Source: Eledone cirrhosa
Lineage: Eukaryota
DNA length: 64,000 nucleotides
Direction of reading: 5' to 3'
NCBI GenBank assembly: GCA_964016885.1
Contig: OZ024747.1
Location: forward strand, 77,438,001 to 77,502,000
A program made the position numbers and the translations under genes. Shown in pieces: positions 58,069-58,364 of this stretch. The notes under the pieces are model-generated. The model saw only the letters and a program-made list of their open reading frames with translations, searched no databases and had not been told where the DNA came from. Every line of letters begins with the position of its first letter. The stretch's first letter is position 1.

Positions 58069-58352
58069 TTAGTTATACTATTTATGGTTATGTAAATACA
58101 AAACCTTAAGCAGTTGTAAGTATTTTACACACACCCTAAATAGTGGTAGGCAGTAATGTATTACTACCTTATTACCAGTAAGTTAAGTAGCTCAATGTAA
58201 AAACATCAGATGATTTACAGAGCAGTTATATGAAATATAAGAATCAAAGAACTGTTCAAAACATTATTGTGCTTACAGCTGTTTCCTCCAAACCGAGGTT
58301 TGGAGGAAACAGCTGTAAGCACAATAATGTTTTGAACAGTTCTTTGATTCTT

Positions 58353-58364
<12 letters not shown>
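58066..58364. mobile_element. Family B element with a perfect ~68 bp-arm palindrome centred on hammerhead stem II
   Basis: Arms 58227-58294 and 58297-58364, containing ctccaaacc-ga-ggtttggag GAAA cagctg TA agcac. Homologous to 6095-6270. Confidence 0.82.

Follow-up and report, generated by a model that had tools for sequence, protein, structure and literature searches.

The question raised by this locus is why a perfect palindrome should turn around within a hammerhead ribozyme. The window (the whole 64,000-nucleotide stretch of Eledone cirrhosa DNA that was analysed) was scanned for palindromes with a complexity filter, unfiltered scans being swamped by (TA)n, and the perfect palindrome reported by an earlier note at 58227-58364 was recovered, with 68-bp arms, 0 mismatches and a 2-nt GA spacer. 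Positions in the element are given relative to r0, the G of GAAA, with stem II at r-19 to r-2 and the predicted cleavage between r11 and r12, and family B denotes the Penelope-like family whose pseudo-LTR (pLTR) forms the palindrome. The insertion exceeds the palindrome. Its long arm (58063..58304, minus strand; locus L044) comprises the 3' part of the pseudo-LTR from stem II (r-19) to a distal end at r219-222, including a 'tail' at r59-222, and is 99% identical to the full-length copy L078, with the native TC loop on the minus strand. Its short arm (58287..58364, plus strand) runs from stem II (r-19) to a fixed internal end at r58. Common to both is stem II itself (58287..58304), an 8+2+8 quasi-palindrome that constitutes the junction. 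The (TA)n target lies on both sides, at 58017..58065 next to the long arm and at 58360..58386 next to the short one, where an ATATA microhomology overlaps the arm end.

The centre can be identified as stem II because the homologue at 6083..6131 (plus strand), a complete hammerhead from an older subfamily of the same element with a U4C core and stem III CAATTG, shows the native order: stem I, core, unpaired A, 8-bp stem II with a TC loop, G, GAAA, palindromic stem III, TA and stem I. Set against this layout and the minimal hammerhead architecture available from PMC4209133, the short arm holds at 58306..58322 (plus strand) the 3' half of the hammerhead, namely GAAA, palindromic stem III, the predicted cleavage at 58317/58318 and the 3' strand of stem I, and the long arm holds the same half at 58269..58285 (minus strand). 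The note's reading of the centre as stem II, and of the 5' core as replaced by a mirror of the 3' half, is therefore borne out. The palindrome is a genuine remnant of a Penelope-like element (PLE), a head-to-head pseudo-LTR insertion in (TA)n, and taken singly it is a dead stump and ordinary.

Judged from its sequence, the family B motif is a predicted minimal type I hammerhead of the metazoan PLE kind with an atypical core. Three helices surround the core and helix III is palindromic, a property kept across subfamilies (CAGCTG/CAATTG). As in the metazoan hammerheads described in the available part of PMC4209133, helix II has 7-8 bp, an unpaired base follows position 9, helix I is short and the palindromic helix III is small; unlike those, family B has a U4C core and its 10.1/11.1 positions are not the conserved G-C pair. 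The core reads CCGAAGA in nearly all native copies among those listed, instead of the canonical CUGANGA, a point absent from the earlier note. According to the accessible text of PMC3088659, the U4C variant is much slower in vitro, yet a viroid can make do with it in vivo. Family B escaped a strict hammerhead descriptor, the Rfam scan had no hammerhead family among the matches listed (only microsatellite-driven miRNA matches were present there), and the monomer fold was without significance (z -1.6). A splice-donor-like GTAAG overlaps the cleavage triplet at r9 (window 58315; L303, L222, L229), and several family B arms end at r6-9, as an excised-intron template would yield; a convincing acceptor was not found.

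The full-length family B unit measures 4198 bp, and copies at that spacing enclose an ORF of about 830-860 codons, as in L078. An AlphaFold model of the ORF (pLDDT 84) has telomerase reverse transcriptases (TERT) as its top Foldseek matches (E 2e-9), the RT motifs YRDD/MGS/ADK are conserved, and the GIY-YIG endonuclease motifs IY...YVG, R...H and C..C..E are conserved across 95 aligned proteins. A single ORF thus carries both a telomerase-related RT and a GIY-YIG endonuclease at its C terminus. Atlas look-alike clusters (0.96-0.97) carry GIY-YIG in 31-50% of members, together with RVT_1 and HTH_animal; the Pfam scan and PDB sequence searches of the ORF itself returned no significant match, and no direct GIY-YIG Pfam match. 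Partial-tandem pLTRs, an inverted 5' copy and a one-sided tail are all present. On these motifs, the modelled fold and the pLTR architecture, family B is classed as an EN+ Penelope-like element, in agreement with the note as to PLE identity, and the linker motif CNC...CP...C, a zinc finger conserved like the RT and GIY-YIG motifs, suggests a Neptune/Nematis type. The family is young, with intact ORFs and 1396 arms carrying one exact 35-mer from r60-94; an r58 end with TA next to it is found in 706 arms across the genome. Argonauta hians is the only organism named among homologues, and r58 and r222 ends followed by TA also occur loose in sequencing runs of other organisms.

That inverted pseudo-LTRs occur in PLEs, as the note stated, is published: an inverted pLTR with a one-sided tail is known for EN+ PLE insertion units, and the portions available of PMC3846280 and 10.1101/2021.04.23.441226 describe, as in family B, a head-to-head inverted 5'-truncated copy, a junction palindrome, a tail on a single arm, microsatellite targets and partial tandems. 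The tail is about 165 nt in family B versus 30-40 in those units. These accounts invoke antisense-template self-priming or endonuclease resolution and, in the same portions, do not place the junctions on the hammerhead; PMC3846280 has already put forward self-priming to explain junction palindromes in PLEs. In the available text of PLE papers, the origin of inverted pseudo-LTRs and tails, as well as hammerhead cutting in vivo, is stated to be unresolved. Among open-access main texts, no paper was found that links PLE junction palindromes to hammerhead stem II or names twin priming for PLEs, and a term search of the accessible part of 10.64898/2026.07.22.740005 gave nothing relevant to PLE junctions. 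The overall architecture is thus a known one; the useful part of the present analysis lies in the family-wide junction statistics. Family B gives countable predictions in the form of two fixed start sites, loop flips, cleavage-site ends and slipped repeats.

The exact stem II junction was found at 26 loci, and at 2 more with mismatches, giving 28 loci in all; it accounts for 1 of 97 chromosome 1 arms and 5 of 706 r58 arms. Young as well as old subfamilies, whose identity to the reference is about 75-99%, contain it; since both arms carry matching subfamily variants, it arose repeatedly and independently. Junction centres, counted with gapped palindrome patterns in four 30-nt windows whose different anchors make the counts no more than roughly comparable, number 49 in r9..39, 16 in r-21..9, 6 in r-52..-22 and 8 in r-81..-51. 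Thirteen of the 16 near-symmetric junctions in r-21..9 lie exactly at stem II, where about 0.09 would be expected per spacer length. Stem II is the only 8-bp inverted repeat with a loop of at most 8 nt upstream of r58 in the 4.2-kb unit, and as DNA it is predicted to form a self-dimer (-17.7 kcal/mol) more favourably than a hairpin (-5.8 kcal/mol). It is therefore a sharp yet minor junction hot spot, used in about 1% of insertions; the local enrichment claimed by the note holds, but a general role as turn-around point is not supported. Junctions are commonest at r18, where a single nucleotide forms the centre (native in 7, flipped in 9); the one at r-75 has no loop, and both readings are found on the plus strand, irrespective of arm polarity. 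Stem III, an 8-nt perfect palindrome, was considered as a turn point and rejected, with 0 young copies and 1 older copy. At L088 (G000:C10:50250244-50260200), two full-length copies form an 8.7-kb near-perfect palindrome joined at the upstream stem II. Both arms of L088 read through the downstream stem II region without joining there, so stem II is not an obligatory stop.

The anatomy of the arms was mapped for all 97 chromosome 1 arms of the r58 class, with both members of the duplicate pair L136/L137 kept. By script, 68 are inverted, 24 solo (some of which have a very short or distant inverted partner) and 5 direct. Of the 68 inverted pairs, 60 have a partner whose end lies at r216-222 and 8 have internal pieces instead; no r58-r58 pair occurs among the 97 arms. 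Within the 60 pairs, 18 have no overlap, 14 have an r58 arm reaching >30 nt further 5', 17 have a longer r222 arm, and 11 are within 30 nt of symmetry versus 2.2 expected (0 of 20,000 shuffles). Across 32 pairs and 13,097 positions, the arms share 228 departures from the reference and differ at 65. Given that variants are shared and near-symmetric pairs are in excess, both arms of a pair have one source and stop in a correlated fashion. Nonetheless, 32 of the 60 pairs cannot be self-copies of a first cDNA, because 18 do not overlap and 14 are reversed in length. Slipped ATATATTTC repeats of 1-4 units are found at 22 of 62 r58 ends versus 1 of 61 r222 ends, as expected of a priming site. Tandem repeats of this type lie at r45-58 (window 58351-58364; also L271, L279, L290, L006 and L015), the older subfamily has (CT)n at its r58 end, and the r58 repeats look like what telomerase-like reiterative copying would leave where synthesis is primed. 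Each of the two fixed start sites of family B sits at the 3' base of a small perfect stem-loop (r45-59 and r203-223) that ends in TA-like microhomology.

At the 28 loci, the stem II loop reads TC (native on the long arm) in 16 and GA (flipped) in 12, with ratios of 7:6 in the young and 9:6 in the old subfamily; L015 and L088 were resolved by hand. The explanation that we favour, with a probability of about two in three, is twin priming, in which both target strands prime cDNA on one RNA and the cDNA 3' ends pair at stem II. Both nicked strands of the (TA)n target would prime reverse transcription of the same RNA, at r58 and r222, through an RT-endonuclease presumably acting as a dimer on one template. 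The two cDNA 3' ends would then anneal through the self-complementary stem II, forming 16 bp around a GA/GA mismatch, which may be fixed at random to a TC or a GA loop. Stem II would simply offer the cDNAs their best self-complementary stretch for annealing, and would be a minor meeting place rather than the cause of a fold-back. At near-symmetric junctions elsewhere both cDNAs likely run off the same RNA 5' end, which would differ by family. Twin priming with intermolecular joining explains the loop flips, the r18 and r-75 junctions, the slipped repeats at r58 and the two-strand extension by PAc. The available part of PMC11167929 reports that PAc in vitro cuts and extends both strands, starting at two sites that bound the tail. 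PAc Poseidon is further like family B in its AT-rich target, its predicted dimer and the hammerhead in its pLTR; inverted products or junctions are not described in that part, whereas family B has head-to-head junctions.

In L1 twin priming, both target strands prime on one RNA and microhomology joins the cDNAs; the arms are without overlap, and the place where the second primer anneals varies. Family B is alike in its two-strand priming, but its sites are fixed and its arms often overlap, giving palindromes.

The earlier note had attributed the palindrome to a self-primed snap-back. As weighed here, one cDNA (or an antisense RNA) ends just past stem II, folds and is copied back. Such a process, which is proposed in general form in the accessible text of PMC3846280, would place the centre on the best hairpin in the unit, where the 13 of 16 local junctions are indeed found, and would give both arms common private variants and an excess of near-symmetric pairs; it accounts as well as twin priming does for 17 of the 60 pairs and, considered by themselves, for the 16 stem II copies with a TC loop. 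However, an r222-primed cDNA that folds back requires TC on the long arm, and the loop orientation is not fixed, being flipped in 12 of 28 loci without an age trend; nor is the mirror arm nested in the first arm in 32 of 60 pairs. The 18 non-overlapping and 14 reversed-length pairs would need large extra deletions. The r18 and r-75 junctions cannot fold intramolecularly because their loops are 1 nt and 0 nt, and the restriction of slipped repeats to r58 is left unexplained. Both arm ends lie at fixed element sites. Snap-back at stem II is unlikely as a general mechanism. That judgement covers a variant in which a full hairpin is cut, one arm at r58 and its partner at r222, or in which the loop flips later; either might apply to the stem II class. 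Some observations in favour of twin priming can be read otherwise: the flips could come post-insertion from recombination between arms, the slipped repeats could stem from a repair polymerase rather than RT, and copying from DNA or gene conversion would also give arms with shared variants.

The other sites at which the note had seen the same geometry mostly behave differently. In family A (5575, 30719 and 54096), the long 'stem II' is the mirror copy itself; natively, an 8-bp stem II closes a 37-nt loop, and it is within this loop that the junctions fall. At 58670 one arm carries 12 nt of mirror sequence and then gives way to other DNA, and family D (54401, 54749) turns at or 5' of the core, with 14 of 18 palindromic copies keeping the core on at least one arm (by eye) and most stopping just 5' of an intact core. 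At 33148 one arm retains the whole hammerhead and the junction is asymmetric, and the palindrome given at 63654 is centred at 63628 in non-hammerhead sequence beside a family E arm. Family C junctions vary. Family A is another PLE, with RT-like ORF pieces in L300 and L304 and copies at window 5498-5700, 30642-30841, 54097-54369, 57674 and 58669, and at L191; its core reads YTGAGAA or TTGATAA, with partial U3-A8 covariation. An apical hairpin was predicted in its loop II, with a fold without significance (z -0.36). Families A and D and one E copy stop at a like distance from GAAA, r-21 to -28.

In 24 of the 25 family A inverted pairs at hand, the arms stop at or 3' of r-23, within the stem II loop, which points to an RNA 5' end there; the 5' ends of copies lie close to r-22, on an initiator-like TCATTT 25 nt below a TATA-like motif in loop II. 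An RNA 5' end in loop II is likely the rule in family A. Extended to family B, this would mean that the transcript 5' end (a pLTR start or an RNA break) lies in loop II, that both cDNAs run off and that fill-in completes the junction. The full-length L088, joined at the upstream stem II, would suit this explanation, as would the internal pLTR promoter of Penelope (available text of PMC2377424) and the 8 of 44 chromosome 1 arm ends in r-130..r58 that fall in r-19..-8 (p = 0.006, window chosen post hoc). It is nonetheless very improbable, given that nine other tandem or full-length copies start variously, from r-25 to r-1109 of the upstream pLTR, and that trimmed symmetric junctions around r-9 are absent. 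The full-length copies likewise lend no support to one dominant start at stem II in family B. A 5' end in loop II is compatible with twin priming, and differs only in why the cDNAs stop.

Long palindromes are unstable and hard to assemble. Rearrangement after insertion, amplification of one palindromic master copy or a misassembly of long reads would find a foothold in the two duplicate locus pairs (L136/L137 and L296/L299), and no independent record bridges the stem II centre among the contigs and joints listed. Against these stand the recurrence of an identical junction across subfamilies of about 75-99% identity to the reference, in different flanks and with subfamily variants on both arms, and the fact that arms differ by 0-2 substitutions and have fixed element sites as outer ends. 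Short-read contigs of another organism hold head-to-head junctions r18/r18, r15/r13 and r27/r9 (one contig each, with sides of 25-29 nt), and short-read data of other organisms show both fixed ends followed by TA; the sequencing-run search had no RNA holder among those listed. Such origins are the least credible of those weighed, with hardly any weight left to them.

Returning to twin priming, the RNA template itself may be recorded in the 49 junctions centred at r9..39, just 3' of the predicted cleavage site (48 independent, L296/L299 being duplicates). Eight arm ends in 7 of the 49 junctions lie exactly at r12 and none at r9-11, both arms of L271 end at r12 around an ATATAT filler, and junctions passing r12 number 2 by script, or 3 including L181 by hand. 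This pattern in the genomic sequence suggests that hammerhead-cleaved RNA may sometimes be the template. In the older subfamily there is no clear repeat of the r12 boundary: none of its 25 junctions, read by eye, has a clean r12 end (p about 0.02 if the young rate applied), while 3 are ambiguous between r10 and r12 plus TA filler and several end at r6-9. The available part of PMC11167929 describes hammerhead cleavage in PAc as dispensable and finds no RNA ends at the cut, whereas 7 of 49 family B junctions end at the predicted cut. The U4C core, the dispensable cleavage in PAc and the lack of clean r12 ends in the older subfamily all argue against a cleaved template, as does the dominance of r18-21 ends, for which local microhomology may account. 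A wider proposal, tentative and less likely than not, is that the complete in vivo reaction of a PLE can be read from the junction maps: a dimeric RT-endonuclease would twin-prime one RNA, the inner cDNA being made by telomerase-like reiteration of a 7-9 nt template, with a subset templated by the hammerhead 3' product despite U4C, both cDNAs running off at the cut and stem II annealing the cDNAs. If true, this would be genomic evidence that the PLE hammerhead cuts and that the cut RNA is retrotransposed.

Other features were seen in the window. A 697-aa RT ORF at 423-2516 (minus strand; RVT_1, E 2e-7), with a hammerhead nearby at about 3585 (minus strand), looks like another Penelope-like element, and a LINE with RVT_1, zf-RVT and AP endonuclease ORFs lies at 45109-50395 (minus strand). 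Frames with 7tm_2, PLAC8 and C2H2 zinc-finger matches are found at 6937-8208 (plus strand), 55970-56590 (minus strand) and 50795-51238 (minus strand). A repeat with no recognisable hammerhead, at 63407-63656 and 58729-58920, has its fold at CTGCTG-A-CAGCAG and adjoins arms that belong to two different hammerhead families. Palindromes at 3404-3549, 56793-57206 and 57841-58020 are tail-to-tail or microsatellite-centred around (TA)n, and form a class apart from the head-to-head units.
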